A stretch of DNA of 64,000 bases from an uncultured Gammaproteobacteria bacterium (GCA_963769895.1 CAVYNJ010000004.1:5882-69881); one strand, 5' to 3'; counted from the first letter of the stretch, positions 4,877 through 31,769 are shown. Notes: a model not told the origin generated them from the letters alone. A program made the numbers and translations.

Positions 4877-4921
4877 CTTCGAACCAGGGGGCCGGGGGTT
4901 CGAGTCCCTCCGGGCGCGCCA
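4877..4921 (+). repeat. tRNA-Arg(UCG)-like 3' half (anticodon loop to CCA), att-like fragment, copy 1
   Basis: Sequence is CTTCGAA CCAGG GGGCC GGGGG TTCGAGT CCCTC CGGGCGC G CCA. It reads as anticodon loop (UCG), T-arm, acceptor 3' strand and CCA. The upstream sequence cannot form the 5' half (no GCGCCCG acceptor strand). Confidence 0.75.
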
Positions 4922-4931
4922 ACAACAGGTA

Positions 4932-5465
4932 GTGTCAGTGGCAGCAGCCTCCCGCCTCGGCAGACAGCTCGAAGAAGTCATCGCCAGCTTGAGCAAGGCG
5001 GATGCGCGGTTTGCGTTGATTGGCGGGCTCGCCTTGGCGTCTCACAAAGTGATTCGCGCCACGCAGGACATCGACCTGCTCACCGATTCTGAAAAAGCCG
5101 AGGACATCGACCGCGAGTTAGTTGCGATCGGCTATCGGTGTCTTCATCGCAGCCCCGATGCTGGCAACTACCTGCGCGGTGACGAGCGCGTGGACTTCAT
5201 CTACGCCAGCCGCCCCGCGGCGCGCGGTTTGCTCAGTAACGCCACATCGATCCAAACGGCTTTCGGCGAACTGCGCGTCGTCAGCGCCGAGGGATTGATT
5301 GGGTTGAAGATCCAGGCCTTCGTCAACAATCCGCGCCGCACGCAGGACCTGGAGGATATCAAGGCCCTGGTCGCTGCGAATCGGCAAGCGCTGAAGATGG
5401 ACGAGGTACGCGAGTACTTCCAGCTTTTCAATCGTGAAGCGTTGCTCGAGGAAATTCTAAAGTGA
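4932..5465 (+). CDS. nucleotidyltransferase-fold protein (AbiEii/DUF1814-like)
   Basis: 'FALIGGLALASHKVIRATQDIDLL' has the GG.A...H...R.T.DIDL signature of AbiEii-type NTases. I place a GTG start just after the tRNA fragment. The upstream part of the ORF-track frame crosses the tRNA fragment and is not credible. Confidence 0.6.
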   Translation: MSVAAASRLGRQLEEVIASLSKADARFALIGGLALASHKVIRATQDIDLLTDSEKAEDIDRELVAIGYRCLHRSPDAGNYLRGDERVDFIYASRPAARGLLSNATSIQTAFGELRVVSAEGLIGLKIQAFVNNPRRTQDLEDIKALVAANRQALKMDEVREYFQLFNREALLEEILK

Positions 5466-5644
5466 GTGTACCTACCGATAACGGCCAACCGTTTGCCGCC
5501 GATGGCGGCGTCACTCACGTGCCGGCGGTGACAAGCCGTGATCCATTTGAAGCCTTGGATGACTTGATGACGGTCATCGAGGCGTTGTGTCCTGTTTGGC
5601 CGGACCGCGAGCTATTCTCGGCTACGGACCGATTCTTGATCTAG
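5462..5644 (+). CDS. hypothetical small protein, coupled to the NTase gene
   Basis: Its GTG start overlaps the NTase stop (GTGA). 60 aa, no recognisable motif. Confidence 0.35.
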   Translation: MSVPTDNGQPFAADGGVTHVPAVTSRDPFEALDDLMTVIEALCPVWPDRELFSATDRFLI

Positions 5645-5730
5645 TGCTCTCACCAAGACCCAATCTGCCCTGGCTGAAAAGCGGGTGCGGCGCGCGGTCG
5701 CAGCATGAGGTGGCCGCCGGGGGGGGAATT

Positions 5731-5970
5731 GTGAGCAACGACAATAACATTGGAGGCGCAAATCCCTCGTACCGCGGCTATGACTATCAAAAGTTGGTAA
5801 CCGTTTGGGTGGCGCTCGATCTCATGTTCGATTCCAAGCCTTCGGCGCACGAAATCATCGTCGAACCAGCGTCACACGATGACGTTAAGGCCAAGCTAGA
5901 GGTTTCGCGTTCTGTCCAAAAGCTAAAACGACATCCTTTCGGGCCTCAGGCGGCGGCTGCGAGGTGCTAG
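5731..5970 (+). pseudogene. N-terminal fragment of a Cap4/DUF4297-like defence nuclease
   Basis: A GTG preceded by GGGGGG, then 'GGANPSYRGYDYQKLVTVWVALDLM'. This resembles the G..(G)(F/Y).YQ N-terminal signature of DUF4297-type nuclease domains. The frame degenerates after about 60 aa and runs into the mazF 3' end. Confidence 0.4.
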
Positions 5971-6020
5971 TCGTCGAGCATGGCACCAGGCGGTGGCGAG
6001 TTCGCCAGTGCGCGGGCGCG

Positions 6021-6368
6021 TTAATGGCCTGCGAGGCCAAGCTCGTGACTGATCTGGCCCAACGCCTGCCTAAGCAGCGTAGACGATATTTTCCCAAGTC
6101 TCCTCGCGTCGGACGCCTCGATGGTGGCGATCTTCGCGCAGCGAATCACTGAAGGCACGGGCAGCCCGGCCGCGGCGATATCCTTCACGGCCACATCGGT
6201 CGGCCAGCCGCGGTTATCCGCGCTGGTAATCATGACCACCCAAATCAGATGATGGGCTTCTTCCAGGGTTCCCGCGGAAACCACCAATGCAGGCCGCGAT
6301 TGCCGGGTCGCTCGGTCCGTGTACGGGAAGGGGATCTTGATGACGTCGCCTTGCTTAAAGTTTGCCAT
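6021..6368 (-). CDS. mazF: MazF/PemK-family endoribonuclease toxin
   Basis: 'MANFKQGDVIKIPFPYTD...RPALVVS' is the canonical PemK/MazF N-terminus. Its start overlaps the antitoxin stop by 14 nt. Confidence 0.85.
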   Translation of the reverse strand: MANFKQGDVIKIPFPYTDRATRQSRPALVVSAGTLEEAHHLIWVVMITSADNRGWPTDVAVKDIAAAGLPVPSVIRCAKIATIEASDARRLGKISSTLLRQALGQISHELGLAGH

Positions 6369-6573
6369 AGGCTTTCCGGTCGGCTGGCGAGTCCCACTCG
6401 CCAAAAGTGCGAAATGGATCGTCCCCTTCCCGCACTTGCCTGGCCTTGGTGAGAATGACCCGCTGTCCCTCAATTTCGTAGACCAGCTCGTCGCCTTCTT
6501 GCAGATGCAGTGCCGCCCTGATGGGCTGTGGAATTGTCGTTTGCGCTTTGGTCGTCAGCTTGCTCGTGATCAT
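6355..6573 (-). CDS. mazE: AbrB/MazE-type antitoxin
   Basis: 'MITSKLTTKAQTTIPQPIRAALHLQEGDELVYEI' is a SpoVT/AbrB fold motif. Confidence 0.8.
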   Translation of the reverse strand: MITSKLTTKAQTTIPQPIRAALHLQEGDELVYEIEGQRVILTKARQVREGDDPFRTFGEWDSPADRKAYGKL

Positions 6574-6586
6574 CGGCCGCCTCTTG

Positions 6587-6623
6587 CTGTAAGGATGTTC
6601 CTTACTGTAAGGAAATTCCTTGC
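6587..6623 (-). promoter_or_regulatory. putative mazEF operator (two adjacent palindromes)
   Basis: GTAAGGAtgtTCCTTAC is followed by tGTAAGGAAATTCCTTgc. The site begins 14 nt upstream of the mazE start codon. Confidence 0.5.
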
Positions 6624-6671
6624 CGCTGTCAATTGCGGTTGTCCAAGCGAAACGACGCTGTAGGAGGCGAA

Positions 6672-7665
6672 TTACCAATCAGGCGGCGACGGGAGTTTCG
6701 AAAAGCCGTTGCAATGGCGTTCCCAGACATAGTGAGCCAGGCTTGCCTTCGGTGATGAAGAACTCCCGGCACGATTCGTTGGCGTGTGACCGTCGAGGGA
6801 GCGGTGCACGCGAACTCTGTTGTAATAGGTTCGGAATTTGTCGAGCTTTCGGTGTAGATCGATCGAATTCCAGAAGAACGTGTGGTCCAGATAGGGGCAC
6901 CGACTTGATCTCCTCGACCTCGAGGATCCGTGGATTGGCGAGCCGCCGCTGAAAGCGGAACACTGGGTCGTGATCCGTACTGACCCGAACGGGTGGTGCA
7001 TGGCCGACAATAGCGTGATTGAGCATGCGGCACACCGCCGGGCCGTCAATGTACTCGCCTCCGATGCCAAAGCCGATGATGCGGCGGGTGAACACATCCA
7101 TGACCATAAGGACCCATTGGCCACGCAGCAGGATCGACTCGCAACGAAACAGGTCGACGTTCCAGAGGCTGTCCTTGGCTTGCGCGAAGAAGGTGAGCCA
7201 GGAGGGATCCGAGCCGTTCGGATGATCTGGGCCGTAATGCGTCGCGAAGACCCTAGGGACGACATCCTTATCAATCTGAACGGCGAATGCATGGGAGTTC
7301 TGTTCGGCAACGCGCTGATGGCCGAATCTCGGGTTACGGACCTTCATCTCGAGGATGGCTGCCATGATTTCCGCCGCCTGCCCCGTCGGTCGGGACTTGC
7401 GCTGGGCTCCCGCGGACGAGAACAGGCGGCGATATTTCCGATCGACCAGCGCCTTGTGGAATCGCAACAGCGTCTCCGGCTTGAGAATCGCGGCGAGCTT
7501 CGCGACGCGTCGGGGACGCACGAACAGCGTCGTCAATCCGAGCACGAATCGATCGACTGTGGTCAGGGACGGGGCGCGTCGACGGCAGCGGTGGCTGATG
7601 ATGCGTGGCACGCCTCGCGCAAGGTCGACGTCAGCAAAGTTCCTCGCCTCGCAGTATAACGACAT
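6672..7665 (-). mobile_element. DDE (rve-type) transposase gene, inactivated by internal deletion/frameshift
   Basis: The N-terminal HTH region ('PETLLRFHKALVDRKYRRLF') and the catalytic core up to 'STDHDPVFRFQRRLANPRILEVEEIKSVP' are in one frame. The C-terminus 'YLDHTFFWNSIDLHRKLDKFRTYYNRVRVHRSLDGHTP' is in another. The roughly 20-aa segment that normally carries the catalytic Glu is missing. Confidence 0.75.
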
Positions 7666-7864
7666 CGAAATCCGTGCCTGTGCCGGACTTGGGTGTTTGT
7701 GCTTGGGATAAGGCCGATGCTTGCGGGACTTTTGCGTGACTCAGTGCTGCTTCGTTATGCGCCGTCGTGACAAATGCAACGGTATCCGTGCGGCGATGGC
7801 TGCATAACTCTCTGATGCTCAATCAATAATAAATTGTCGAAAAATATGCATCGAGCTTCCAGCC

Positions 7865-7898
7865 GAGGGGCCGGCGCTTCGAGTCCCTCCGGGCGCGC
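7865..7898 (+). repeat. degenerate tRNA-Arg-like 3' fragment, copy 2
   Basis: GAGGGGCCGGCGCTTCGAGTCCCTCCGGGCGCGC. The T-arm and acceptor strand match copies 1 and 3, with a few changes and a deletion in the anticodon-arm part. Confidence 0.55.
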
Positions 7899-8000
7899 TT
7901 TGGAATCAAGGCCAGCCACGCTTCGCGGCTCCGACGTGTCCAATATCTAGTACGTTCATCCAATATCGGCCGTGCCAACATCAAACATCTTCTGCCCGCC

Positions 8001-8060
8001 GGTCGATTGTCACTTCAATGAGGCTCGAACTAATTTTGCCTAATTGGTAATTCGCGCCAC
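8001..8060 (+). repeat. junction repeat family, copy B (most diverged)
   Basis: GGTCGATTGTC...CTCGAACTAATTTTGCC.AATTGGTAATTCGCGCCAC aligns with copies A, C and D. Confidence 0.5.
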
Positions 8061-8259
8061 ACATCCGCGTTGCCGGATCGATTCGCCGCGGCTTCACGCC
8101 GCGTTCGAAGTATAAGGCGAACTGCCGACGCGGCATCAGGATCTCCGCGGTCAGGGCGCCTTACCGCCGGACGGCGAGCGGTACAGCCCCTGCTGGATCG
8201 GTCAGCACCAGCAGCACAATATAAAGCAGCGCGATCACGCGACAATAATGTCACATTGG

Positions 8260-11170
8260 CTATGCGTCGCCGTCAACGGTGACTGTTGAATTATTGCGCA
8301 CCACAAGCGCCGTCATCAACACCGGGCGCAATCGCACAAAGCCGGCCGCGAGCGCCGCTTGCTCCGCATCGCCGATCTCGCCGAGTTTCTCGCGGGCGAA
8401 GCTGATCACCAGCACGCTGTTGGCGGTTGCAACGCCCATGCACATGATCGCGCCCGTGAGCGCGGGAACCGACAGTGTGGTATGCGTCGCAAACAACATC
8501 CAGATAATCCCGGCGAGCGCCGCCGGCAACGCGGTAATAATGACGAAAGGATCACTCCACGACTGGAAATTGATGACGATCAGCAAATAGATCAGCACGA
8601 TCGCGCCGAGCAGGCCAAATAGCAATCCGGAGTAGGCGCTGTTCATGGTCGCCGTTTGGCCGACCAGCGCGACGATCGATCCCTTCGGCTTGTGTTTGTC
8701 ATTCTGAGCGATGATCCTTTGGATATCCGCCGAGACCGCACCGAGATCGCGCCCTTGGGTGCTTGCATAGATGTCGACCATCGGCGAGATGTCATATTGC
8801 GAAACCACCGCGTCGCTGCGCGTGCGCTGTATGTCAGCGATGCCGCCAAGCACCGCGGTCGGCAAGCCGCTCGCATTCACCGGCAGATTCTGCAGGGCGG
8901 CCAGACTGTCGATTTGGTATTGCGGCGTCTGCAGCACAATCGGATAGGTGACACCGTTTTTTTCATTGAGCCAATAGGTGGGCGCGACTTGGCCTGAACC
9001 TGCGAGGTTGACCACCATGCTGTCGGTCACGTTGGCGGCGGTCACGCCGGCAAATCGAGCGCGCGTGCGGTCGAGGTTTACATCGAGCGTTGGCTGACGA
9101 GCCGATTGTTGAATTCGCGGATCCGCGACGCCCGAGACATTGCGGATCTGCGCCAGCAGCCGATTGGCGTAGGCATAATCGGCGGCGAGGTTGCTGCCGC
9201 GGATTTGCAAATCGATCGGCGCGGGGGCACCAAAATTGAGGATCTGGCTGACGATATCGGCCGGCAGAAACGAAAAGGTCATGCCAGGGAAGAGGCGCGG
9301 CAACTGTTGACGCAGGCGATCGACATATCCGGCGGTCGGTGCGTGCCCCTGGGTGAGTGAGATCTGTATGTCTCCGTCCGATTCGCCTATCGAGCCGGTG
9401 TTGTTGTAGATCGTGTTGATCGCCGAGACGTACGTGCCGATATTGTCGACCACCGTCGCCACTTCGGTCGGCGGAATCACCTCTCGGATCACCTGTTCAA
9501 TTTTAGCGAAGTGTGCGGCCGTCTCCTCGATACGCATCCCAACCGGTGCTCTGACGTGTAGCAGTATCTGACCGCCGTCGACCTGAGGAAAGAAATTGCG
9601 ACCCAGAAACGGCACGAGCAGGAACGATGCGGCGATGAAGACGAGAAAGCCGGCGACAAATCGCCGCCGATGCTCGATGGCGAGCGCCAGCAGTTCGCGA
9701 TAACCGGTGCGCAACCGTGCGAAGTGCGCCTCGAACCCCCGTTGAAAGCGCACCAACGGGTTTCTCGACGGCGGTGGCGCGTTGCCGCCGGTCTCGCTGG
9801 GGTTCGCGGGTTGCCTGCGCAGCAAATACTTCGCCAGCGTCGGCACCAGCGTGCGCGAAAGCAGGAACGAGAATACCATCGCGAACATTACGCTTTCCGC
9901 CATCGGCACGAACAGATAGCGCGCCACGCCAGTAAGGAAAAACATTGGAACGAACACGATACATATGCAAAGCAATGATACGAAAGCCGGAACGACGATT
10001 TGCGAGGCACCGTCGATGATGGCGGTCTCGACATCCTTGGCCTGTTCAAGGTGATAGTTGATGCTCTCGATCGTCACCGTCGCCTCATCGACGAGTATGC
10101 CGACGGCGAGTGCCAAACCGCCGAGGGTCATGATATTCAGTGTTTCGCCGATCGCCGCGAGCGCGCCGATCGCCCCGAGGATCGACAGAGGAATCGAGGT
10201 TGCGACGATAATGGTCGAACGTGCGCTGCCCAGGAAGAGCAGAATCATCAACCCGGTCAACACCGCCGCGATCACACCCTCGCGGATCACGCCCGCGATC
10301 GACGCGCGCACGAAGATCGATTGGTCGCCGATCGCTCTGATTGTGAGCGCATCAGGCAGAGATGGCTTGATGACTTGCAGCATCTTCTTGATGCCGCTGA
10401 CGATATCGAGTGTCGAGGTCGTACCGTTCTTGAACACGCTGAGCAGCACCGAGCGGTTACCGTCCACGTGGACGATATTGGTCTGCACTGCATTGCCATT
10501 GTGCACGTTGGCGACGTCGTGCATATAGACCATTGCGCCGCCCACGCTTTTGATCGGTAGATCACCGAGGTCTGAAATTCGCGAGGGCGCACAGTTGAGA
10601 TTGACGGTGTATTCGTAGTCGCCGATCTTCTCCGACCCCACGGGCGTCAGCAGGTTCTGCGCGGCGAGCGCCTGCGCGACGTCGAGGCCGGTCAGACCAC
10701 GTGATTGCAGGGCGGCCGTGTCGAGATCGAACATGACCTGCGGCGTCTTGCCGCCGAAAGGCCATGGAATGCCAGCTCCTTGCACCGTGACCAGTCGCGG
10801 ACGTACGAAGTTAAAGCCAAGGTCCGCGAGACTGCGTTCGGTGAGGCCGTCGCCCGAGAGGATGTTGGCCGTACGGGTGAAAGAAGATCTTGACGATGCC
10901 AAAGGTCGTGTAGGAGTTGGCCTCGATGTGTTCGATATCGTTGACGGTCGTCGTCAATGCCCGTTGATAGGGAGTGATGATCCGTCCAACCATCTGATCG
11001 GATGGCAGACCCTGGTATTGCCAGGCGACACCAATAATTGGGATGTTGATGCTCGGGAAAATATCGACCGACATGCGCAGCGCGGCAAGCCCGCCGCTGA
11101 GGAAAATGAGGAGCGCCATGACGATGAACGTGTAGGGTCGTCTCAACGCGATGCGGACAATGGCGAGCAT
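8260..11170 (-). pseudogene. RND (AcrB/HAE1-type) efflux permease, frameshifted near the N-terminus and 3'-truncated
   Basis: The N-terminus 'MLAIVRIALRRPYTFIVMALLIF...' (10811-11170) is in a different frame from the 880-aa body. Homology ends at '...RLRPVLMTAL', and is followed by unrelated 'VVRNNSTVTVDGDA*'. No membrane-fusion-protein gene lies upstream. Confidence 0.8.
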
Positions 11171-11497
11171 GGGGTGCCGATAAAGCGAGAGTGGGTGCTG
11201 ACCCGCGGACGATTATGGCGCGGTCGGCGCCGGCTTGTTCAAAAGCGACTACGCCCGAAGCTGCGGGAGTGTCCTAAATCGGCCGGGGAGGCGGACGTAA
11301 ACGCAGACATCGCGGCACGTTCCAACATGGTGGGCCACGGTGCCGGCACGTCCGCGAGCGAGCTCGATGAATCCCTGGTTCATAAGATCATCCCCTTGCT
11401 TGGTCGGCACTGCCAATTGCAGGACACTGCGTTGGAGTTACAGGTGAAATGCGCGGCGATCATCGCGAACGCTCGCCGTAGGCCACGGCCACGGCGG

Positions 11498-14032
11498 CTA
11501 CATTCGGTTCCGGGATTCCAAGGTCCGCGCGAGCGATTCCGCGAGGTCGCGACGATGCAGTGGTTTGCGCAGCACCTCATTCACGCCAACGTCGGCGGCT
11601 CGGCTGGTGAGCCCGGTGCCGCCGTAGCCGCTCATCAAGATGACCGGAATGTCTGGCCGCAGCTTCCGGACCGCTTGCGCTAACTCGGTCCCCACCAGCT
11701 CCGGCATTACCTCGTCGGTGACTATCGCATCGAAGCGCTCGGGACTGTCGCCAAAGGCCTTTAATGCTGCGAGACTTGAATCGAATCCGACCGGCTCGTA
11801 GCCGAGCTCGGCGGTGATCTCCTCTGCGAGCGCGACCAGCGCGCGCTCATCATCGACGATCATCACGGTCTCGCCGTTTCCGCGAGGCAACGCTTGAACC
11901 GACTCGACAACCGGCATCGCGGTCTCCCCCGTGACAGGCAGCCAAATCTCAAATCTCGTACCTTCGCCGATCTTGCTGTCGACGTCGATGGCGCCACCCA
12001 GATCGCTGACGATGCCGTGAACCAAAGATAAACCGAGACCCGTTCCCTGGCCGACGCCTTTGGTCGTGAAGAAGGGGTCGAAAATGCGCTCAAGCACATT
12101 CTTTGGAATGCCGACGCCGGTGTCGCTGACGGCGAGCCTGACGTAGTGCCCCGGCGTCAGCGAACCTCGCGACAGCGTTCGTCGGTCATCGACTTCGACA
12201 CGGTCCAAGTTCACATCGAGTACGCCACCGCGCTCCATCGCTTGAATGGCATTGGTGCAGAGGTTCATTGCAACCTGGTGCAGGTAGGTGGCATCTCCGA
12301 TCACCGCTGCGCTGCCAGCCTCTAAGTGACTCTCCAAGCGTATGCCGGCAGGCAGAGACGCGTTGAGCAGCTCGAGCGTCTCCTCGACTACGAATTGCAC
12401 GTTCACCAAGGTTCGATCGCCGAGGCCGCTGCGGCTGAAACCGAGAATGCGCTCGACCAATAATCGCGCACGCTCGGCCGCATGCATGACGCAGTCGAGA
12501 TAGCGGCGCAAAGCGCTACCTTCAGCGGACTGCTGTTGCGCCAGTTCACCGTATCCCAATATCGCACCGAGGATGTTATTGAAATCGTGCGCGATTCCGC
12601 CCGCCAGCGTGCCGATCGCCTCCATTTTCTGAGATTGCCGCAGCTGCGCTTCAAGCTGCTCCTTGTCTAACTGGCCCAGCTTCTGCGCAGTAATGTCACT
12701 CGATGAGCCGACGAACCTCACTGCTGTTCCGGCGGAATCACGCAAACATCGGCCGCGCGCCAGCATCCAACGCCAGTCGCCGTTTGGTTGACGCACGCGG
12801 TATTCGCACTCATAGCGGGTAGTCACGCCTTCGAAGTGGTCTCTGAGCGCGGCTTCGAAGCGCGGCTGGTCATCGGGATGCACGACGATATGTGATAGCC
12901 AATCGTCCCGCGAACTGATCGCCGCATCGGCGCTTAACCCGTAGAGGATCTTCATTTTCGGCGACAGGAACAACCGCTGCGTTGCGATATCCCAATCCCA
13001 ATGCCCGTCATTGGCGCCTTCCATGGCGAGTGCGTAGCGCTCCTCGCTAGCGCGTAGAGCCCGCTCGCTGGCGGCGACTCGGCGAATCTGGCGCAACAGT
13101 GCGGCTAGCGTTACCGACGCGAGCAACGTGAGCAGCAGCGTGCGTACCCCCACGGCGAGCGTCTCCTTGCGCCACGACCGCAACGCCTGCGCTTGGGAAC
13201 GAGTAACCGCAATGGTCAGCGGGGCATTCCGCACGCGCGCGGCCGCGATTAGGTCCAGTTGTCCGTCGATCGGGCTGACGAATCGCGCTTCGGGCGTCAT
13301 TGAGGCGCTCACGAGGGCGGGGAACTTCCTCCCGGCCGCGCCCGGCACGGGCGGATTGCGTGCTAACAATGTACCGTCGTCTCGTAGCAGTTGAGTCGAG
13401 CTGCTGGTGCCGAGGTCGACGGCGCCGGAGAATCGCTGGAGCTCGGCCAGATCCACAGTCGCGGTGACCACGCCGGCAAATCTTCCGTCTTCGTCGTGAA
13501 GCCGACGTGAGAGCTCCACGGAGGCACGGCCCTCTGAACGGGTGACAATCGGCTCGCTGATGAATAGACCCGCGGCGGCGTTGTCGCGCTGGGCGATGAA
13601 ATACGAACGATCGGAAACGTTGTGTCCCACACTGACCGGCCCGCGCGAGGCAAAACGTTGGTTGCCCAGTGCGTCGACAATCAAGACTTGTCGCACCTGT
13701 TGCACGCCGGCGGCGCGATTCTTGAGGACTGCATCGATACGATCTGGCGGCAAGGCACGGCCGTTGGTGTGGTACCAAAGCGCAGTGTCGATCAGCAGCA
13801 AATCAACGGCCTGCAATGTCCACGCGGTCTGCTCGGCCAAGGAGTTCGCCGTGTTAGCGAGCTCGCGCTGGTTTACCGCCAGTTCATGCCGATAGGAGCG
13901 CCATGCGTCATAGGCCGAGGAGCAGCCGATGGTCAGGATCACTAGGATACCGACTGATATGGCTGCGAGCCGTAAACGTCCGAATCGGATCGAGTCGGCG
14001 TTGGGGTGGACGTGGCCGGTGGATGAGGGCAT
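11498..14032 (-). CDS. hybrid sensor histidine kinase (Cache-like periplasmic domain, PAS, HisKA, HATPase, REC)
   Basis: Two TM segments flank a ~270-aa sensor domain. PAS region 'ERYALAMEGANDGHWDWD', H-box 'GGIAHDFNNIL', G-boxes 'DTGVGIP...GTGLGLS', and a C-terminal receiver 'VMIVDDE...IVTDEVMP...KPL'. Confidence 0.85.
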   Translation of the reverse strand: MPSSTGHVHPNADSIRFGRLRLAAISVGILVILTIGCSSAYDAWRSYRHELAVNQRELANTANSLAEQTAWTLQAVDLLLIDTALWYHTNGRALPPDRIDAVLKNRAAGVQQVRQVLIVDALGNQRFASRGPVSVGHNVSDRSYFIAQRDNAAAGLFISEPIVTRSEGRASVELSRRLHDEDGRFAGVVTATVDLAELQRFSGAVDLGTSSSTQLLRDDGTLLARNPPVPGAAGRKFPALVSASMTPEARFVSPIDGQLDLIAAARVRNAPLTIAVTRSQAQALRSWRKETLAVGVRTLLLTLLASVTLAALLRQIRRVAASERALRASEERYALAMEGANDGHWDWDIATQRLFLSPKMKILYGLSADAAISSRDDWLSHIVVHPDDQPRFEAALRDHFEGVTTRYECEYRVRQPNGDWRWMLARGRCLRDSAGTAVRFVGSSSDITAQKLGQLDKEQLEAQLRQSQKMEAIGTLAGGIAHDFNNILGAILGYGELAQQQSAEGSALRRYLDCVMHAAERARLLVERILGFSRSGLGDRTLVNVQFVVEETLELLNASLPAGIRLESHLEAGSAAVIGDATYLHQVAMNLCTNAIQAMERGGVLDVNLDRVEVDDRRTLSRGSLTPGHYVRLAVSDTGVGIPKNVLERIFDPFFTTKGVGQGTGLGLSLVHGIVSDLGGAIDVDSKIGEGTRFEIWLPVTGETAMPVVESVQALPRGNGETVMIVDDERALVALAEEITAELGYEPVGFDSSLAALKAFGDSPERFDAIVTDEVMPELVGTELAQAVRKLRPDIPVILMSGYGGTGLTSRAADVGVNEVLRKPLHRRDLAESLARTLESRNRM

Positions 14033-14050
14033 GGGGCGGAATCGAGCGTA

Positions 14051-14446: not shown

Positions 14447-14530
14447 CGGTCACAGCGATAGGCGCTAGCCTGGCCTACCGTATCTACAAGAACCGTCACG
14501 CCAGCATGCTCGTGGGCCGGCGCTGCTCGT

Positions 14531-14614
14531 TCAGGCGGGCACCGCGAAAATTAGCATTACAAACGCGGTCATCATCACCGCTGCCATGAAGCCGAACCAT
14601 CGAACCGTTCTCAT
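14531..14614 (-). CDS. possible 27-aa hydrophobic peptide
   Basis: An ATG preceded by GGAGAG. 'MRTVRWFGFMAAVMMTAFVMLIFAVPA' forms one TM helix. It is upstream of, and co-directional with, the receiver/kinase pair. Too short for compositional support. Confidence 0.25.
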   Translation of the reverse strand: MRTVRWFGFMAAVMMTAFVMLIFAVPA

Positions 14615-16666: not shown

Positions 16667-17185
16667 CTACCGACCGAACCAGCGGCGCGCCGAGATTGGG
16701 CCGGCAAGCCGCGCCGAGCAGGATCTGTCACGAGGGGGAAGATAATTCCGCACCGTCCGCGGCGAGAATTGAATTGCGAGCTTCAGAAGGAGCTCGTTGG
16801 CACTGCGTTCTTCGCCCCATGTGGGATTCTCGCTGCCCATGCGGCGGATCAGAGCCTGTAATTGCTGCCGGATCGGCGGTCGGCCGGGGCGAGACTTCAG
16901 ACGCCAGAACAATTACCAGCCCGCCCGGTGCCAGCGGATCATCGTTTCCGGGTGCTCAACAACCAAGGCGTCTCGCCAATTTCAGAACGGCGACAGGAAC
17001 GCCAACTGTATACGCATGACAGGATTGCTGCGTCGCGGTTCGATTCCGCGGTCGACATACGTGGCGAGCTGGCGACGTAGGAACAGATTTTGCGCCTCGA
17101 TCGACTTCGTTGAGCGAAACGCCAATCGTAGGCAACGAAGCAGGTCGCCGATCACCGATATCAGAACCCGGAACGCCGTCCCCAA
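16667..17185 (-). mobile_element. N-terminal remnant of a DDE transposase gene (frameshifted, catalytic domain missing)
   Basis: 'SIEAQNLFLRRQLATYVDRGIEPRR' (16982-17185) and 'FWRLKSRPGRPPIRQQLQALIRRMGSENPTWGEERSANELLKL' (16667-16912) are consecutive N-terminal motifs of this transposase type but lie in different frames. No rve core follows. Confidence 0.65.
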
Positions 17186-17422
17186 TGATCAGTCATGCCA
17201 CAATGGTCACCGACGAGATCCGGATGACCGATCGATTAATTGCGGATGACGGGGGAAGTGTGCTTTGCCGTCCGACACCCAAGGTGGAAGCCCGGTGCGT
17301 GAATCGCGCCCGCTGGGATCTGTGCGGGGAGCCGCCGCTGCCCGCACAGTAATAGTGTGGACCCACCAGAATATGGTATTAATTACCGACGCCGTATCGT
17401 ACAAATTAGTTTGAGGTGAATC

Positions 17423-17884: not shown

Positions 17885-17887
17885 ACC

Positions 17888-21448: not shown

Positions 21449-21582
21449 ACGAATATCTATGGCACCCCCAGTAACTCACTTTGACGCATGAATTGTCTGA
21501 GGATGCCTCGGCGCGGATGTCACCCGGCGAGTCGATTCGCCGACGCACCTTGATCTTTGCGAGCTCACGGACGGCAGCGCAA

Positions 21583-22779: not shown

Positions 22780-23226
22780 ATGACAAAACCCATGACACAT
22801 CGACGAGCGGCTGGAACCGAAGCACAATTTCTAGGGCACCTGGGGTTGGGCCCGCTCGAGACTAAGGTACTCGAATTGCTTTGGGCGCGAGACGGCGCTG
22901 CGACTGTACATGACGCCCATCTCGCGTTCCCCGAGCTTGCGTATACGACGTTGATGACCACGCTGGATCGCCTCTATCGCAAAGGAGTGCTGCTGCGGCG
23001 CCGACGCGGACGGGCGTTCGTTTACGAGCCGCGGTGCTCGCAGGTGGATTTGCTTGGCGAAAAGGTGACGACTCAGGTCGCGGATTTTCTGGCCGCATCG
23101 GGCGCCGATAACGTCCTGCTGTCGACGTTGGTCCGCATCGTGGGGCGCCAAGATGCCGCACTGCTCGATGAGCTGGAAACGCTCGTTCAAGCCGAGCGCA
23201 AGCGGCTCAAAATGGAGGACACGTGA
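22780..23226 (+). CDS. BlaI/MecI/CopY-family transcriptional repressor
   Basis: 'LGPLETKVLELLWARDGAATVHDAHL...AYTTLMTTLDRLYRKGVLLRRRRGRAFVYEP'. Confidence 0.85.
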   Translation: MTKPMTHRRAAGTEAQFLGHLGLGPLETKVLELLWARDGAATVHDAHLAFPELAYTTLMTTLDRLYRKGVLLRRRRGRAFVYEPRCSQVDLLGEKVTTQVADFLAASGADNVLLSTLVRIVGRQDAALLDELETLVQAERKRLKMEDT

Positions 23227-24161
23227 GTTTCGCCGGGATGCTCTGTCTCGTATTGGCTGCCGCTTACGGGCTTAACTGCCTCGTGCTATCGATCCTGATT
23301 GCCGTCGCCTGGCGAGCGTGCGGCAGACGCATAGGCTCGAGCGCGGACGGTCTTCTTGCGGCGCGATTGCTGCCTCCCGCAGGCGCTGCGCTGCTGACGC
23401 TGTCCCTCGTGTTGCCTGCTTTCTTGATCTACGAGCCAACCCGCGAGTTCGAACGGCCCGGACCGGTCATCCTGGCGCTGGTGCTGCTGGCCGTCGTCGC
23501 CATCGGCGCCGGTGTCGCACGCGGGTGGCGGGCGTGCGCGGTGGCTCGAGAGCTGCTTCGCCAATTTGAGGGCGTCAATCGCCGGCTGCGATCGGCCGGC
23601 AGCCAATTCGACATTGTCGACCTCCCGGAACCGATCGTTGCGGTCATCGGCGGGTGGCGGCCGCGCATCGTGGCGGCCCGCAGCGTACTCACGGTCTGCA
23701 GCGGCAAGGAGTTTCGCCAGGTCATCGCACACGAAGCCGCGCATGTTTCGACGCGAGACAATTTGAAGCTTCTTCTAATGATCATCAGTCCCGATGTTCT
23801 GGCGTGGCTGCCGAGCGGCGCCGCGTTGACGGCTCGCTGGCGGGCCGCCGCCGAGTGCGAGGCGGATGAGCGCGCCTCCGGTTCGGATCCACGCAAGCGC
23901 GTTGCGCTTGCATCGGCGCTAATCAAAATCGCGCGGCTGGCGGGCGATGCCGGCCGGCCGCCGGCCGCCCTCAGCATGCCCGTCGCGGCCGATGATGTGG
24001 AATCCCGAGTGCGACGATTGCTGTTGCCGCCAGCGGACGCACCCCGAAGATCCTTGATTCGAGGTTTGATGATAGTCGCGTTGCTGATGCCCATTGCCGC
24101 TTTGCCATTCTACGCGCTCGTGCATCGAATCATCGAAGCGTTCGTCGCATTCGGTCTCTGA
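23223..24161 (+). CDS. M56-family (BlaR1-like) membrane metalloprotease / signal transducer without a penicillin-binding domain
   Basis: The GTG start overlaps the blaI-like stop. Several TM helices and the zinc motif 'VIAHEAAHVSTRDNLK'. Confidence 0.8.
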   Translation: MSFAGMLCLVLAAAYGLNCLVLSILIAVAWRACGRRIGSSADGLLAARLLPPAGAALLTLSLVLPAFLIYEPTREFERPGPVILALVLLAVVAIGAGVARGWRACAVARELLRQFEGVNRRLRSAGSQFDIVDLPEPIVAVIGGWRPRIVAARSVLTVCSGKEFRQVIAHEAAHVSTRDNLKLLLMIISPDVLAWLPSGAALTARWRAAAECEADERASGSDPRKRVALASALIKIARLAGDAGRPPAALSMPVAADDVESRVRRLLLPPADAPRRSLIRGLMIVALLMPIAALPFYALVHRIIEAFVAFGL

Positions 24162-24176
24162 TCCGCCGGGCCGACC

Positions 24177-26291: not shown

Positions 26292-26519
26292 TGTCGTCTC
26301 TACGGTATCGTGCTACGGCGCGCTGCGGAAAACGCGGCCACTGACAACGAGAGCCGAGCCAGCGGTCATTCGGCACCCAGGGTCGCGCGATGCTCGGCGC
26401 AAAGCCCGTTCCTCGCTGCGAGCGCTAACGGACAGTCTAGGCAGTCTCATCGTATTACTACCAGCGATCGTAACTATGGTGAGATCGGACAGCACCGTTA
26501 CTTGTGAGGTCGGTGGGCG

Positions 26520-26920
26520 ATGGTCGCCGATTTGAGGCCGATGCGCGCGTTGCTCGCGATTCTCAGTTGCGCTGCCTGCCATCGCCCGCGTCATCCCGCG
26601 AATAACCACGATGCGGCCGGATACGTACGATCCGGTATTATCGAACCCCATACCGATTTGCGCCTCCATGATCTCGGCCCCGGCTTGGCAGATCGAACGA
26701 TCGCAGGCGCAATCATGCCGCGGCGCGGGCGCGCGGTGCCCCATTGGGACCTCGACTTTCGCCTCGGCACCACGTGTGCGCCCTCTGTTCTGCGCGGTGA
26801 CCGTCCGGGTCGATCGAGGACGCGATCTTGTGGCATGATGAAGAGGATCGATCGGCGCGCGTGGAATTTGAGCGCTTGCCGGGCTCGCAGAGACTGAAAT
26901 TGTTGCTTTGGATAGGGCCC
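26520..26920 (+). pseudogene. C-terminal remnant of a DUF1111-type di-haem (thiol oxidoreductase-like) protein, multiple frameshifts
   Basis: A 'SCAACH' haem motif, then 'IEPHTDLRLHDLGPGLADR' in one frame. '...ILWHDEE...ARVEFERLPGSQRLKLLLWI' follows in another frame. The order of these pieces matches the C-terminal third of DUF1111 proteins. Confidence 0.5.
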
Positions 26921-26987
26921 ATTGAGCGACGCACTGCGGCGGGACGCTCATGGGCCGATCAGATGAATTTGATGGAGCACTATCGGT

Positions 26988-27473
26988 ATGCGAAAGACCC
27001 CATCGGTGCGGTTTCGCGTGGATCTTAGCGGGAATTGCGCCGTTGGTGTTGGGAAGGTCGAATTGCTGGAGGCAATCGCTTGCACCGGCTCGCTGTCTCA
27101 AGCCGCACGCGGGATCGGCATGAGCTATCGACGAGCATGGCTCCTGTTGGCGGATATGAACGTCAACTTCGGTCAGCCCATCGCCCGCACCAGCACCGGC
27201 GGGCGTGGCGGCGGCGGCGCGGAGCTGACGGGACTCGGTGCGAGCATTGTTAGCGGATACCGAAATCTGGAGTCGGAAATGCGGCCGCTCGCGCTGTCCT
27301 ATTTGAGGAAATTGAACAGGCATCTCACGGCCTCTCGCGCCAAGCCCATCGTCAACGCGTCCTCCATCGCGCGAAAGTCTGCGCTGAGACCACGACGGCG
27401 AACGAAATCGGCCAAGCTTCGCTGTCAGCGGTTACTTCTTAGCCTGTCGACGAATAGCGTTGAAATTGGCTAA
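26988..27473 (+). CDS. ModE-N-terminal-like winged-helix regulator
   Basis: 'GVGKVELLEAIACTGSLSQAARGIGMSYRRAWLLLADMN...TSTGGRGGGGAELTGLG' matches the ModE/LysR-type HTH of molybdate-regulator-like proteins. Confidence 0.65.
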   Translation: MRKTPSVRFRVDLSGNCAVGVGKVELLEAIACTGSLSQAARGIGMSYRRAWLLLADMNVNFGQPIARTSTGGRGGGGAELTGLGASIVSGYRNLESEMRPLALSYLRKLNRHLTASRAKPIVNASSIARKSALRPRRRTKSAKLRCQRLLLSLSTNSVEIG

Positions 27474-27710
27474 ATTCCCGCGGGCGCTCAGTGCGCGTGT
27501 GAACCGGCGCCGACTGTTTACCGGCGTCCAAATTGGAGGCCCGTTCACGGATAGGGAGATCGCGTAGAGGTTTTACCAACTCGGGAGTGAACGAAGGGCA
27601 TCAATCGCGCGCCGCTTGGAAGCCCTCACCCGCGGGCCGAGACGAATGATCAAGTTGGACAGCGAATGATTCGGGAGTCATGGGAATCTACCAGCAAAGG
27701 AGCAATCTCT

Positions 27711-28148
27711 ATGGATAGCATCAAGCCATTATTCACGGCGGTCGGTTCAGTGACCGGCGGGCGCAATGGTCACGGCGAAGCCGAGGACCATTCCGTTTCG
27801 GTGGATCTATCGGTGCCCAAGGCCATGGGCGGTCCCGGTCGACCAAATACGACCACGCCGGAACATCTGTTCGCGGTCGGGTACGCCGCCTGCTTCGGTG
27901 GCGCACTCGATTTTGTCGCAGTGCAGAGGAAGAGGAACGCCAAAGGAGCAACCGTCACCTGCAACGTGTCGATCGGTCCGCGCGATCTGGGCGGATTCGG
28001 CATCGCGGTGAAGCTGCACGTCAAAGACGCGACGCTACCGCAGGCAGAACTCGAGGCTCTCGTCCGCGAGGCGCACGACAAGATCTGTCCGTACTCGCAC
28101 GCTACGCGGAACAATGTTCCGGTCGAGCTTTCGGTCGAGGGCGGATAG
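27711..28148 (+). CDS. ohr: organic hydroperoxide resistance protein (Ohr/OsmC family)
   Basis: The ATG is preceded by AAAGGAG. 'PEHLFAVGYAACFGGAL' and 'ICPYSHATRNN' carry the two conserved Ohr cysteines. Confidence 0.85.
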   Translation: MDSIKPLFTAVGSVTGGRNGHGEAEDHSVSVDLSVPKAMGGPGRPNTTTPEHLFAVGYAACFGGALDFVAVQRKRNAKGATVTCNVSIGPRDLGGFGIAVKLHVKDATLPQAELEALVREAHDKICPYSHATRNNVPVELSVEGG

Positions 28149-28365
28149 TCGGTACTCGCTGTGGTCAAGTACGGCGATAGGGCTTTCGTGCGCAGATCAT
28201 CGAAGCCTGCGTCGCGCTCGCGACCGGCAGGCCCGAGTTAACGAACGACGCGCTACGTGCGTACTCGCCTTGCGGTTCTGCATCGGCGCAGCGCTGTGGC
28301 GATTTGAACGCCTGCAGAAGCCTCGTCTTGATCCGATCGAGTTCACGCGATGCCGATCCACAGAG

Positions 28366-28824
28366 TTAGCGACCTGCGACTTCATCAAGGAGCCGGCGCA
28401 GAGTGATTATTCGGATCTCGGCGAATCGCTTTAGATTGAGCATCGCCTTATCGCCGGTGACCATGATGTCGGCGTCTCGCGAAAACTTCTCGGCCAAAAC
28501 GCCTAGAACCTCGTGGATAATGGGCTTGGATATGAATAACTCCACCCGGCCATCGATTACCATGTCGATTGCCCGCTCCGCCTGGCCGCCCTGAATCGCG
28601 AGGGCGGAGATGAAGATGTTGGTATCGAAGACCGCTTTCAACGGCGAAGGAGGCGCTCGAGTTCCCGCTCGGACAGAAAGCCGGCCGCGCGGGCGCGATC
28701 GGCGCAAAGCCCGCAGCGCGTCCTGCACCACGGCGCTAAGTGACTTATTTTCTTCGCGCGCGATGGCCTCCGCCTCGGCGGCCAGGTCTGCGGGCAGTGA
28801 AATTGCTTTTTTTTGCGGCTTTGG
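28366..28824 (-). pseudogene. decayed RHH-antitoxin / PIN-toxin module
   Basis: The RHH-like 'KKAISLPADLAAEAEAIAREENKSLSAVVQDALRAL' has no start codon and runs in-frame into a PIN_3-like toxin ('KAVFDTNIFISAL...ADIMVTGDKAML'). The toxin appears to lack its central part. The expected antitoxin C-terminus ('FLSERELERLLRR*') is in another frame. A T8/A8 tract lies at 28807-28814. Confidence 0.55.
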
Positions 28825-28963
28825 TTACGTCGAAATCCTCGGGTAATGTCCAATATCTTCTGCTGGCCGGGCGATTGCAAAATCAAATGAGCTCAATTCT
28901 CGCACTGAACATGCTTAATTATGAATTCGTACCCCACAGGAGGCAGCTCTGCTTGTAAGGCTC

Positions 28964-28981
28964 ACTAGACTGGACTAGACT
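28964..28981 (+). promoter_or_regulatory. possible operator of the Phd/VapC module (direct repeat)
   Basis: ACTAGACT gg ACTAGACT, about 25-40 nt upstream of the antitoxin start. Confidence 0.3.
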
Positions 28982-29004
28982 TAGTTCATAGATGCAGCAG
29001 TTCA

Positions 29005-29256
29005 ATGGAGGAGGGCGTGTCAAAGCCCATCAATATTCATGAAGCCAAGACCCACCTCTCGCGCTTGGTGGAACAGGCGGCTGCTGGCCAGGAAATCGTC
29101 ATTGCCAAAGCCGGCAAGCCCCTCGCTCGGCTTGTGCCGCTAGCCCTTCCCGTACGAGTCAAGAAGCTGGGCCAGCTTAAAGGGAAGATCAAGGTCCCGG
29201 ACGATTTCAACGCGCCGCTAGATGCGGCCACGTTGGCGCTGTTCGAAGGCAAGTAG
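29005..29256 (+). CDS. Phd/YefM-family antitoxin
   Basis: 'INIHEAKTHLSRLVEQAAAGQEIVIAKAGKPLARLVPL'. Confidence 0.8.
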   Translation: MEEGVSKPINIHEAKTHLSRLVEQAAAGQEIVIAKAGKPLARLVPLALPVRVKKLGQLKGKIKVPDDFNAPLDAATLALFEGK

Positions 29257-29258
29257 CG

Positions 29259-29633
29259 ATGCGCCTGCTGTTGGATACGCACGTGCTGCTCTGGGCGTTG
29301 AGCGAACCGAAGCGCATCGGGAAAGAGGGGCTGGTCCTGATTGACAGGGCAGAGGTCTATGTCAGCGCCGCATCCCTGTGGGAGATCAGCATCAAGTCTG
29401 CCCAGGGCAAATTAAAGATCAGGCCCGACGCGGTGTTGATGGCGATAGAGCCCGCGGGCTTCTCGATGTTGCCCATCACGGGCGGACACGCCGTGCGCGT
29501 ACTCGAACTAGGCATGCATCACAACGATCCTTTTGATCGAATGCTGGTGGCCCAGGCGCAGATGGAATTGATGAGTTTGCTCACCAACGACGAGACGCTG
29601 GCCGCGTACGGCAGTAGTGTGCAGGTTCTGTAA
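29259..29633 (+). CDS. vapC: PIN-domain toxin (VapC)
   Basis: 'MRLLLDTHVLLWAL...ASLWEISIK' and 'HNDPFDRMLVAQA'. The start is 3 nt after the antitoxin stop. Confidence 0.85.
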   Translation: MRLLLDTHVLLWALSEPKRIGKEGLVLIDRAEVYVSAASLWEISIKSAQGKLKIRPDAVLMAIEPAGFSMLPITGGHAVRVLELGMHHNDPFDRMLVAQAQMELMSLLTNDETLAAYGSSVQVL

Positions 29634-29784
29634 TACGGCATGATGTTATCTACGTTGGTATCGCCCACGCCCGTGGCCCGCAAAAAATTCGCGAGCTCAC
29701 CGGTGGATACGCGCCTCGATTTTTTGCAGATCCGTCCGTGGTCATTTCCAAATCGGTGCAACCGCCAATTTCGGACTTAGTGAG

Positions 29785-31428
29785 TTACAATTGATCGAGG
29801 CGCCGCGGCCGTGCACCGACCAAATGAGTGGTCTTTGGTCCATCGCCAAGTTGAAAGCGCCGAACGACCTGTTCGATGAGGTGATCGGCCTTCGTCACGC
29901 GCTGGTGCTGCCGGAGGTGATCCAGCCATGAGTCCATCAAAAAGGTCTCGATGAAACGGCCTTCCTTCGCAGGATCCTCGAATACACCCCAATCATAAGC
30001 GCCGTCTCGACGACGCACGCGCGCGCTGCGCCCGAGCGCCTGAAGAAACGGCTCGCGTTCTTTCGGATCGATGTGGTATTCGACTGTCACGAGCACGGGT
30101 CCAAGGTCAGGCTCGATCGCACGGGTTGTGATTGGGGCCGGCCAGTGCATCGAGGGCGACAGATCCTCCACCGCGCCAGTCTGAACCTTCCACGTCCGCG
30201 TGAGCGGAATCGCGATGATCGCACCCGCCGCTGCGATGAGAAGCGCTGTGGTTAACCCGACCATGGCCGCAAGCTCGCCCCAGATCGCGCTGCCAATCGT
30301 CAGTGCACCGAACATGACCGTCACGTATACCGCGAGGCCTCGGCCACGGACCCATTCCGGCAACGCAAGCTGTGCGGACACATTGAGGCTTGCCACGGCA
30401 CAGATCCACGATGCACCCGCGATGAGACTGGCCGCAATAGCAGTTGTGGCATCATGGGCAAGGGCAAACAACCCCGTCGCCACCGCGCTTGCCAGCGTAG
30501 CGATCGAGACGAGCCGGTCTGCGCCCAACTTCTCTCTGAGCCATCGCAGCAGAAATGCGCCGCCCACAGCCGAGGCGCCAATGATGCCGAGCAATGACCC
30601 GTACAGCGCAGGGCCTCCGCCAATCTGGCTGCGTGTGACCAGCGGCAATAGCGCCCAGTAAGCGCTGCCGAAGATGAAGAATGCCGTCGCCCGGATCAGG
30701 GTCGCGCTGAGGTTCGGGTTGTATCGCGCGTGCCGAAGACCCGCGCGCATGGCATTACCGAAACGCTCGGGTGGCAGGGGCGTGCCGCTTTTGTTTTTCG
30801 GCAAGCGCCACCGCACGAGGGCCACGATGACGCCTAAGTTACTGAATCCATTGACCCAGAACGGCGCCGCAATTCCCATCGCCCCGACAAGGAAACCGCC
30901 GATTGCCGGTCCGACGGCGCGGCTGACATTGATGCCCACGCTGTTTGCCGCTACAGCGGCCGGCAGATCCGGTTTCGGCACAAGTTCCGGCACTACCGCC
31001 TGCCACCCTGGGGCCGTGATGGCTGAGCCCACGGTCACGATGAAGCTGAAGACCAACAGGCTGGCTGGTGTGATGAGGTGAAGCCAAACGAGCGCGGCGA
31101 AGGCGGTCGAAGTAACCATGATCGCCGACTCGCCGAAGATCAAAAGGCGGCGACGGTCCACGATGTCCGCAAGCGCACCCGCCGGAATCGCGAATAGAAA
31201 CATTGGCAGACTGTTGGCTACCTGCACCAAGGAAACGATGAACGGGTCTGGGTCGAGGCTCGTCATGAGCCAACCCGATGCGACGCTGTACATCCAGCCG
31301 CCGATGTTCGAGATCACGGTCGCGACCCAAATCACCGCGAATGTCCGATTGCGAAATGGCGCCCACGCGGTTGCAGCCATGGGCGGCGGGACGCTGGCCG
31401 GAAATCGCTTCGCTGGAGGGGCGTTCAT
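29785..31428 (-). CDS. MFS transporter (EntS/MFS_3-like) with a C-terminal ~110-aa soluble extension
   Basis: About 12 TM helices, then 'VLVTVEYHIDPKEREPFLQAL...GAYDWGVFEDPAKEGRFIETFLMDSWLDHLRQHQRVT', which looks like an ABM/Dabb-fold domain. Confidence 0.8.
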   Translation of the reverse strand: MNAPPAKRFPASVPPPMAATAWAPFRNRTFAVIWVATVISNIGGWMYSVASGWLMTSLDPDPFIVSLVQVANSLPMFLFAIPAGALADIVDRRRLLIFGESAIMVTSTAFAALVWLHLITPASLLVFSFIVTVGSAITAPGWQAVVPELVPKPDLPAAVAANSVGINVSRAVGPAIGGFLVGAMGIAAPFWVNGFSNLGVIVALVRWRLPKNKSGTPLPPERFGNAMRAGLRHARYNPNLSATLIRATAFFIFGSAYWALLPLVTRSQIGGGPALYGSLLGIIGASAVGGAFLLRWLREKLGADRLVSIATLASAVATGLFALAHDATTAIAASLIAGASWICAVASLNVSAQLALPEWVRGRGLAVYVTVMFGALTIGSAIWGELAAMVGLTTALLIAAAGAIIAIPLTRTWKVQTGAVEDLSPSMHWPAPITTRAIEPDLGPVLVTVEYHIDPKEREPFLQALGRSARVRRRDGAYDWGVFEDPAKEGRFIETFLMDSWLDHLRQHQRVTKADHLIEQVVRRFQLGDGPKTTHLVGARPRRLDQL

Positions 31429-31726
31429 CCATGTTGTCCAAAATCAGTTGGAAAATCATGCTAACTTGAAGCAAGGCTTATTGCGCGCCGTTTCCGGGGA
31501 TGAAGTCCGCTGTCGCCTCTCTCTCAATGAAGGCAGTCTTGCGGCGGAAGAAGATAGCTTTGGGGTCGCCCGTCTGAGGCTTGCGAGACTTTAGCAGCCG
31601 TCAGTCCTGCTCCGTAATGCTCAGTCGTGACAAATGAAACGATTTCCCGGCGGCGGTTGTTTTCTAAGACACTGAATCTCAAAGAATAAATTCATCTCGA
31701 AATCGAGTATGTCGAATTTCACTTAT

Positions 31727-31769
31727 CTTCGAACCAGGGGGCCGGGGGTTCGAGTCCCTCCGGGCGCGC
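31727..31769 (+). repeat. tRNA-Arg(UCG)-like 3' half, att-like fragment, copy 3
   Basis: 43 nt identical to 4877-4919 (CTTCGAACCAGGGGGCCGGGGGTTCGAGTCCCTCCGGGCGCGC). It lacks CCA, and the upstream sequence cannot supply a 5' half. Confidence 0.75.

Follow-up and report, generated by a model that had tools for sequence, protein, structure and literature searches.

Introduction

Genomic islands that enter tRNA genes leave a recognizable signature, a regenerated tDNA together with a displaced 3′ fragment. In the Islander survey a 3′ fragment of the target gene was recorded in 3760 of 3919 islands and an attP centred on the anticodon in 2083 of the 3919, and only 4 arrays of at least three islands were found among the 3919, with each island required to have an integrase of its own (PMC4383910). 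Accretion involving cis-mobilizable elements (CIMEs) follows a three-step scheme in which elements integrate, decay, and are followed by new integrations (PMC5704250). In the tycheposon islands of Prochlorococcus, serial integrations by tRNA genes push older elements inward and are accompanied by scattered partial tRNAs and degenerate elements (10.1101/2020.12.28.424599). Here we describe a 64-kb stretch of DNA from an uncultured Gammaproteobacteria bacterium (GCA_963769895.1, CAVYNJ010000004.1:5882-69881; hereafter the window) that carries three same-oriented fragments of a tRNA-Arg(UCG) gene. It is very probably an accretion zone at tRNA-Arg(UCG), formed by serial tyrosine-integrase insertions that left attR-type relics and then decayed to integrase-less, CIME-like segments.

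Like the 'A'-type islands of Islander, the window has 3′ tDNA fragments that start in the anticodon loop, keep the orientation of the gene and mark island ends, and all three are terminal fragments from a crossover sublocation that is already known. Unlike Islander islands, the window contains neither an intact tDNA nor a tyrosine integrase inside any candidate island and so would fail the Islander filters; related contigs do show the expected tRNA, integrase, cargo and fragment. The likeness to CIMEs is that cores 1 and 3 are intact with their right arms and that the segments appear to be att-bounded, in tandem at one target gene and devoid of integration and transfer genes as judged by Pfam on sizeable open reading frames (ORFs). 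Composites of the ICESt1/ICESt3 type share this layout. The window differs from them in showing no resident integrative and conjugative element (ICE) or integrative and mobilizable element (IME) able to mobilise the segments, in left arms that are mostly unrecognisable, and in host, a soil gammaproteobacterium versus a Firmicute. Serial integrations and partial tRNAs are also features of the tycheposon islands, from which the window is set apart by another host, another tRNA, presumably other integrase and replication modules, and the absence of integrase fragments in its 64 kb.

Accretion of islands at tRNA genes is a well-known process, and understanding of island formation is unchanged by this locus; what is new is a further example from a little-studied soil lineage. 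The analysis documents an integration hot spot at tRNA-Arg(UCG) in uncultured soil Gammaproteobacteria, of a kind that Islander-type tools reject for a missing integrase or tRNA, and the conserved attP-arm sequences together with the associated integrase group could serve island mapping in metagenome-assembled genomes (MAGs).

Results and Discussion

Three tRNA-Arg(UCG) fragments begin at the same base

All three copies (Table 1) lie on the + strand, start at the first base of the anticodon loop (position 32) and run to the acceptor end. Parsed as a tRNA, copy 1 consists of the 7-nt anticodon loop CTTCGAA, the 5-nt 3′ strand of the anticodon stem, a 5-nt variable loop, a 5+7+5 T-arm, a 7-nt acceptor strand, G73 and CCA (45 nt in all). 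A preliminary description of this DNA, made from the sequence alone, had reported 43 identical nucleotides in copies 1 and 3 and a CCA retained in copy 1, and both statements hold on direct comparison of the sequences. It had also recognized the copy between them as degenerate, which is correct, but placed it at 7865-7898; that copy is full length, 7856-7898, with 37 of 43 positions identical and a broken T-stem. Since its changes abolish T-stem pairing, copy 2 represents decay of the same tRNA part, not a different tRNA. When as many as 3 mismatches are allowed, a 23-nt core is matched in the window only at the three copies, on the + strand, and never in 100 shuffles. A profile built from 16 intact tRNA-Arg(TCG) genes recovers the copies at E = 4e-14, 1e-11 and 2e-6 and nothing else in the window below 0.3. 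As described at the outset, none of the copies has a 5′ half and no intact tRNA is present: ARAGORN finds no tRNA in the 64-kb window, and a search of both strands for the tRNA 5′ half, permitting 3 mismatches, came back empty.

The shared 43-mer corresponds to positions 32-74 of genuine tRNA-Arg(UCG) genes. Searched exactly in one genome per species it has only four matches, all in soil MAGs labelled uncultured Gammaproteobacteria; each of these begins at CTTCGAA and none of the four is an intact tRNA. A metagenome scan with the 43-mer made degenerate at five positions yielded at least 120 loci, and the set analysed here comprises 124 loci (the metagenome loci listed and the four genome loci) with 132 occurrences of the pattern. 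Among these listed matches, 65 of 132 are intact tRNA-Arg(TCG) genes by identity of the 5′ half (GCGCCCGTAGCTCAGCTGGATAGAGCACCTGG), 55 are fragments cut exactly at C32, the first base of the anticodon loop, a further 8 are fragments whose identity extends over more of the gene, and 4 are truncated by contig ends. ARAGORN calls an intact tRNA-Arg(tcg) at 66 of the 126 metagenome matches listed, and one intact tRNA-Arg(TCG), in L140, bears the exact 43-mer of the window. Two IMG/VR contigs with 'tRNA-Arg(tcg)' calls (L018 and L025) were left out as references for their implausible 5′ halves. The assignment to tRNA-Arg(UCG) made in the preliminary description has therefore been tested, because the pattern sits in tRNA-Arg(TCG) genes called intact. 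Its proposal of integration into a tRNA gene is likewise upheld; the site it gave, the 3′ end of the gene, needs refinement, since the crossover lies within the anticodon loop.

Phage sequences show the same boundary. With the last 23 nt as query, IMG/VR returned 35 contigs in which each intact tRNA overlapping a match is a tRNA-Arg, and many phage contigs carry 5′-truncated copies that start at the anticodon loop. The attP sites of the phage group represented by L007 share with the window both the fragment boundary and the T-arm/acceptor 23-mer, but they have an ACG-type loop, CTACGAA, and lie on viral contigs, and the window arms described below match none of them. The tRNA-Arg(UCG) gene is a frequent target in environmental bacteria, and arrays of two or three fragments recur, in L001, in L003, in L113, and in the single contig that holds L045 and L108. 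L001 and L003 also carry a second fragment variant with a compensatory T-stem change, G-C to C-G. The source of this variant must therefore have been a distinct functional tRNA allele, in line with copies borne on an attP.

Element-derived arms lie directly upstream of the fragments

Each window copy is preceded by an AT-rich conserved arm, and taken together these arms have homologues in at least 10 contigs at the matching distance from their fragments, so that element-derived sequence stands directly upstream of the fragment, as at an attR-type junction. Two arm families are represented. The arm of copy 1 is, next to the core, an imperfect mimic of the tRNA D-stem and of the 5′ strand of the anticodon stem (GATCGAGTTCCAGC). 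Its outer part, 4748-4822, is 83% identical to positions 110-184 of L065, at the same distance upstream of the L065 fragment, and its core-proximal motif is common to L145, L155 and L061, with an nhmmer match reaching 4859; these four contigs hold the members of a family that differs from the second one, D2. Arms of the D2 family, 130-190 nt long, precede copies 2 and 3, and homologues occur in the same register directly upstream of fragments in L002, L045 (twice), L049, L113, L048, L088, L146 and L121. Their conserved blocks and GTGCT-type motifs are of the kind expected of integrase arm sites and may well have served as such. On the other side of the cores, the flanks 3′ of the three copies are mutually unrelated, while the 5′ side is conserved with other genomes. 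A conserved left and a variable right of the core is the pattern of an element right end joined to a displaced target fragment, that is, of an attR-type junction.

The two D2 arms of the window are themselves homologous, with 70% identity over 197 nt, D1 repeats (described below) follow both copy 2 and copy 3, and IS (insertion sequence) remnants lie near. These observations would fit a history with one integration only, in which copies 2 and 3 with their D2 and D1 sequences are later internal duplicates produced by IS-mediated or homologous rearrangement. We regard such a history as very improbable. The D2 arm of copy 2 shares 79% identity with L049 (174 nt), and that of copy 3 shares 86% with L002 and 78% with L045; because each is closer to outside contigs than to the other, copies 2 and 3 appear to have been acquired separately. 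In addition, the arm of copy 1 belongs to another family, and no other duplication is found around the copies.

Past copy 2, at 7899-7950, a weak remnant resembles the common left arm of such elements (Table 1), a hint that the integrase normally following this arm is gone. A string at 39243-39272 resembles the T-arm and acceptor of the second tRNA-Arg(UCG) variant and may be a chance match or a very decayed relic. Sequences before D1b, D1d and D1e and at about 39.25 kb look acceptor- or T-arm-like by eye; the tRNA profile finds none of them, and we do not claim them as relics.

Related contigs retain the integrase that the window lacks

The preliminary description was also right that the window holds no integrase. 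Pfam found no integrase, relaxase or conjugation domain in any sizeable ORF of the window; tblastn with 11 integrases gave none, its only matches below E = 0.1 being trivial ones (E 0.02-0.07) from one query ORF that reads through the tRNA fragment; and an integrase profile hidden Markov model run on six-frame stop-to-stop pieces of at least 25 aa returned only E > 0.8. Four related contigs (L093, L088, L100 and L136) show an intact tRNA followed by 2-11 kb of cargo and then a fragment. A Phage_integrase domain was confirmed by Pfam in 7 of 7 proteins tested, 356-448 aa in length (L070, L045, L079, L124, L104, L100 and L048). Tyrosine recombinases of about 360 aa, in L070, L045, L079 and relatives, lie immediately 3′ of the tRNA or fragment, and integrases in this position are mostly convergent with it; those of L100 and L048 are P4-like with an arm-binding domain. 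The common cut of the 55 fragments, the arm homology, the contigs with tRNA, cargo and fragment, and the adjacent Phage_integrase genes together bear out the earlier view of the copies as attR-type relics of serial integration.

A separate arrangement is seen in L112, where an intact tRNA-Arg(UCG) is followed directly by three adjacent tyrosine recombinase genes (9801-12972) that share its orientation; the trio resembles a recombinase-in-trio element on tRNA-Arg(UCG).

A probable history of serial insertion, displacement and decay

In the mechanism we favour, tyrosine-integrase elements would cross over with the tRNA gene within its 7-nt anticodon loop, through an attP that brings its own copy of tRNA positions 32-74. 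Each insertion would rebuild the tRNA at the left end and displace the older 3′ part to the right, joined to the right arm of the newcomer. At least three elements, with two arm families, would in this way have produced the three junctions of element arm and tRNA 3′ part at 4.9, 7.9 and 31.7 kb. During the decay that we infer to have followed, the integrases would have been deleted, an IS would have landed and later been truncated, and a resistance-nodulation-division (RND) pump gene would have become a pseudogene. What remains would be segments bounded by att relics, without an integrase, that carry toxin-antitoxin pairs, transporters and regulators.

Several observations weigh against serial insertion as the full account of the window. 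The anchor of the array is unseen, because neither an intact tRNA-Arg nor a tRNA 5′ half is present in the window, and because no integrase or integrase remnant was found there, no event can be attributed to an enzyme of this genome. After copies 1 and 3 there are no recognisable element left arms. Copy 2, expected from its position to be younger than copy 3, is more decayed, and position is therefore no simple guide to age. The 24-kb interval between copies 2 and 3 holds ordinary-looking metabolic and regulatory genes and is probably composite and not one island. Finally, L161, from a close relative, aligns collinearly with the window at 35.3-39.1 kb and in parts of 55-64 kb only.

It is a reasonable inference that the intact tRNA-Arg(UCG) lies upstream of the window. 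The absence of any tRNA or 5′ half from 64 kb could also mean that the array is detached from its gene, either because the block was carried in within a larger element or plasmid or because the tRNA 5′ part and the DNA upstream of it were deleted. In the four genome loci with the exact 43-mer no intact tRNA is present across the 8 kb of each, and transfer of composite CIME-ICE tandems as single units is known (PMC5704250). Detachment nonetheless seems unlikely to us, for the orientation of the fragments and the polarity of the arms fit the usual layout with the tRNA on the left, L088, L093, L100 and L136 have an intact tRNA upstream of the fragment on the same contig, and a zone of low GC content at third codon positions (GC3) reaches the left edge of the window, so that the array continues beyond view.

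An extension of the serial-insertion mechanism, which we offer as a tentative and rather doubtful possibility, is that the relic-bounded segments are not dead but are still shuffled in trans as cassettes by a widespread, undescribed family of soil integrases that act on the anticodon loop of tRNA-Arg(UCG), so that in Steroidobacteraceae and related bacteria the tRNA would serve as a platform for collecting genes. Two cores remain perfectly intact amid decay, L001 and L003 combine arms and core variants in different ways, as if reassorted, and about half of the environmental occurrences of the tRNA 3′ part, among the matches listed, are fragments. Several segments might then be little more than toxin-antitoxin pairs of about 1 kb, and the platform may be tycheposon-like, almost integron-like.

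Table 1. Positions in the window of tRNA fragments, element-side arms, IS-related repeats and cargo genes
Feature	Position	Strand	Remarks
Relic copy 1	4877-4921	+	tRNA-Arg(UCG) positions 32-76, CCA included; sequence CTTCGAACCAGGGGGCCGGGGGTTCGAGTCCCTCCGGGCGCGCCA
Relic copy 2	7856-7898	+	37/43 identical, decayed, T-stem unpaired; repeat family D3, by blastn and profile (E = 2.4e-6)
Relic copy 3	31727-31769	+	43/43 identical to copy 1, without CCA
Arm of copy 1	4748-4876	+	AT-rich; attP P-arm-like
D2 arm of copy 2	7684-7855	+	conserved blocks TTGCGGGACTTTTGCGTGA and ACAAATGCAACG; repeated GTGCT-type motifs
D2 arm of copy 3	31542-31726	+	86% identical to L002 (119 nt), 78% to L045 (185 nt)
Weak remnant like common element left arm	7899-7950	+	TTTGGAATCAAGGCC..., compared with flanks such as TTTTCAATCAAGGTCTTAAC (L129)
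Possible further relic	39243-39272		string GGCGGTTCGTAATGAATTCGGGTCGCCA
IS remnant	6659-7665	-	HTH_32/rve/rve_3 transposase family, frameshifted; right-end inverted repeat 6659-6684
D1a	3732-3811	+	apparently IS 3′-end-derived; tip ...AATTCGCACCCCACA
D1d	7964-8063	+	starts 65 nt past copy 2; last 26 nt (8038-8063) form inverted-repeat pair with 6659-6684
D1b	28845-28938	+	between PIN_3 fragment and Phd/PIN pair
D1c	31770-31864	+	abuts last base of copy 3
D1e	37076-37183	+	near GC3 boundary of acquired zone; present also in close relative L161
PIN_3 toxin and MazE-type antitoxin	3829-4544	-	fills about 1.1 kb between D1a and arm of copy 1; genes also on L005
AbiEii-like nucleotidyltransferase gene	4950-5465	+	start just past copy 1
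MazF/PemK toxin and MazE/PrlF antitoxin	6021-6678	-	
AcrB-family RND pump pseudogene	8260-11170	-	frameshifted; lacks about 50 C-terminal residues
PIN_3 fragment and Phd/PIN toxin-antitoxin pair	28366-29633	fragment -, pair +	flank D1b

The IS remnant and the D1 repeat

The frameshifted IS remnant between copies 1 and 2 lacks its 5′ leader and left inverted repeat, and its homology to L146 begins exactly at 6658. An intact IS of this family, in L165, is about 1.2 kb long, encodes a 364-aa transposase that starts about 90 nt from the left end, and is free of tRNA-like and D2 sequence. Searching plasmids for the transposase brought no useful result. A second kind of repeat, D1, has five copies of 80-110 nt in the window, all on the + strand. 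The D1 tip (...AATTCGCACCCCACA) and its last 75 nt or so match the right ends of the IS, that is, the last codons and the inverted repeat, both in L165 and at 6659-6684 of the window; by this sequence match D1 is an IS 3′ end. The five copies probably descend from one truncated IS end, because in all of them the cut lies about equally far from the tip and the same indels set them apart from intact ends. D1 may have spread as part of an att identity block, composed of the tRNA 3′ part and D1, that was copied with each insertion. The Logan contig L005 (ERR11594406, 1.1 kb) is identical to window 3782-4902 and ends inside D1a at one side and inside copy 1 at the other, as expected if D1a and copy 1 are multi-copy repeats in the ERR11594406 sample.

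The proximity of D1 to the tRNA fragments raises the question of whether the fragments could be a dispersed tRNA-derived repeat, similar to a miniature inverted-repeat transposable element (MITE) or a short interspersed nuclear element (SINE), or part of the D1-associated IS, spread by transposition and not by an integrase. The five-copy D1 adjoins two of the fragments and ends in an IS-type inverted repeat, and copy 2 with its D2 arm lies between the inverted 26-nt IS ends 6659-6684 and 8038-8063. We find this scarcely credible, however, since neither tRNA-like nor D2 sequence occurs in the intact IS of about 1.2 kb in L165, and since D1d, being a right-end-type terminus, is not the missing left end of the IS at 6.7 kb. 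D2 arms elsewhere are not linked to a transposase and the fragment-bearing loci contain no D1 homologue; the fragments themselves lack terminal inverted repeats and are sharply bounded at the anticodon loop.

Other identities for these sequences were considered and rejected. D2 and copy 2 are not the interior of an IS spanning 6659-8063, given that intact members of the family measure about 1.2 kb, including a leader of 90 nt, and that D1d is a right-end-type terminus. For D1, Rfam gave no match at E <= 1, and there is no conserved fold and no left inverted repeat, and it lacks similarity to integrases; on these grounds D1 was not taken for an RNA, a MITE, the end of a group II intron or the C-terminus of an integrase. 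An integron attC was set aside for the lack of a stable hairpin (consensus folding energy -1.26 kcal/mol), spacings of 3-21 kb, flanking genes in both orientations and the absence of an integrase.

Further traces of mobile elements were noted. An extra D1 occurs in L161 (reverse strand, about 11380-11457) at the junction where this contig diverges from the window. At 54523-54739 (+) the window matches the Rfam group II intron D1-D4 domain (RF02005, 111 bits); no reverse-transcriptase ORF follows and the intron appears truncated. Just downstream of it, at 55159-55362, the IS family of 6659-7665 is represented by a short remnant. A second IS remnant, from a different family, lies within the interval between copies 2 and 3: the ORF at 16736-17249, without a Pfam match, shows 73% DNA identity to the N-terminal region of an rve transposase gene in L145 and has a match in L161 as well.

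Extent of the acquired zone

The mean GC3 of genes is 0.707 to the left of 37.2 kb versus 0.783 to the right (p = 2.4e-5). Because GC3 is low throughout this left part, the acquired zone spans the window from position 1 to about 37 kb. At least two decayed islands, 4922-7898 and 7899-31769, had been proposed earlier; their character as integrase-less segments is confirmed, but the limits are not, as the acquired zone extends beyond them on both sides and copy 1 is itself preceded on the left by an element arm.

Strain variation affects the right half of the window as well, because L161 lacks 39.2-55.0 and 55.25-61.9 kb, which encode an efflux pump, TonB-dependent receptors, DAO/GCV_T proteins, a Trp halogenase and a glycoamylase. 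L161 encodes a DUF1614 protein 96% identical to that of the window, and its version of the alcohol dehydrogenase at 38051-39163 is degraded. In more distant relatives, which show no synteny with the window, homologues of the DUF1614 gene (37213-38052) have unrelated core surroundings and no tRNA close by.

Cargo and neighbouring genes

The content between the copies is of the accessory type, as had been noted before: toxin-antitoxin pairs, an IS remnant, a pseudogene and regulators (Table 1). A listed ORF at 4698-5465 runs through relic copy 1, and the N-terminal part this adds to the AbiEii-like gene is spurious. Between and around the copies there are also a hybrid kinase, response regulators, a three-subunit molybdenum oxidoreductase, BlaI/BlaR-like genes, TonB-dependent receptors, OsmC and an MFS_3 exporter.

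At the left edge, a module of isochorismatase, SDR and SnoaL genes (2-1921) is 83% identical at the DNA level to a contig from a Steroidobacteraceae MAG (L168), which starts there and then diverges. The source organism is an uncultured soil gammaproteobacterium and probably one of the Steroidobacteraceae. Homologues of the SDR that are 78-83% identical at the protein level occur in Paraburkholderia, Bradyrhizobium and Mesorhizobium, and the comparison suggests that the three genes form a horizontally moving module.

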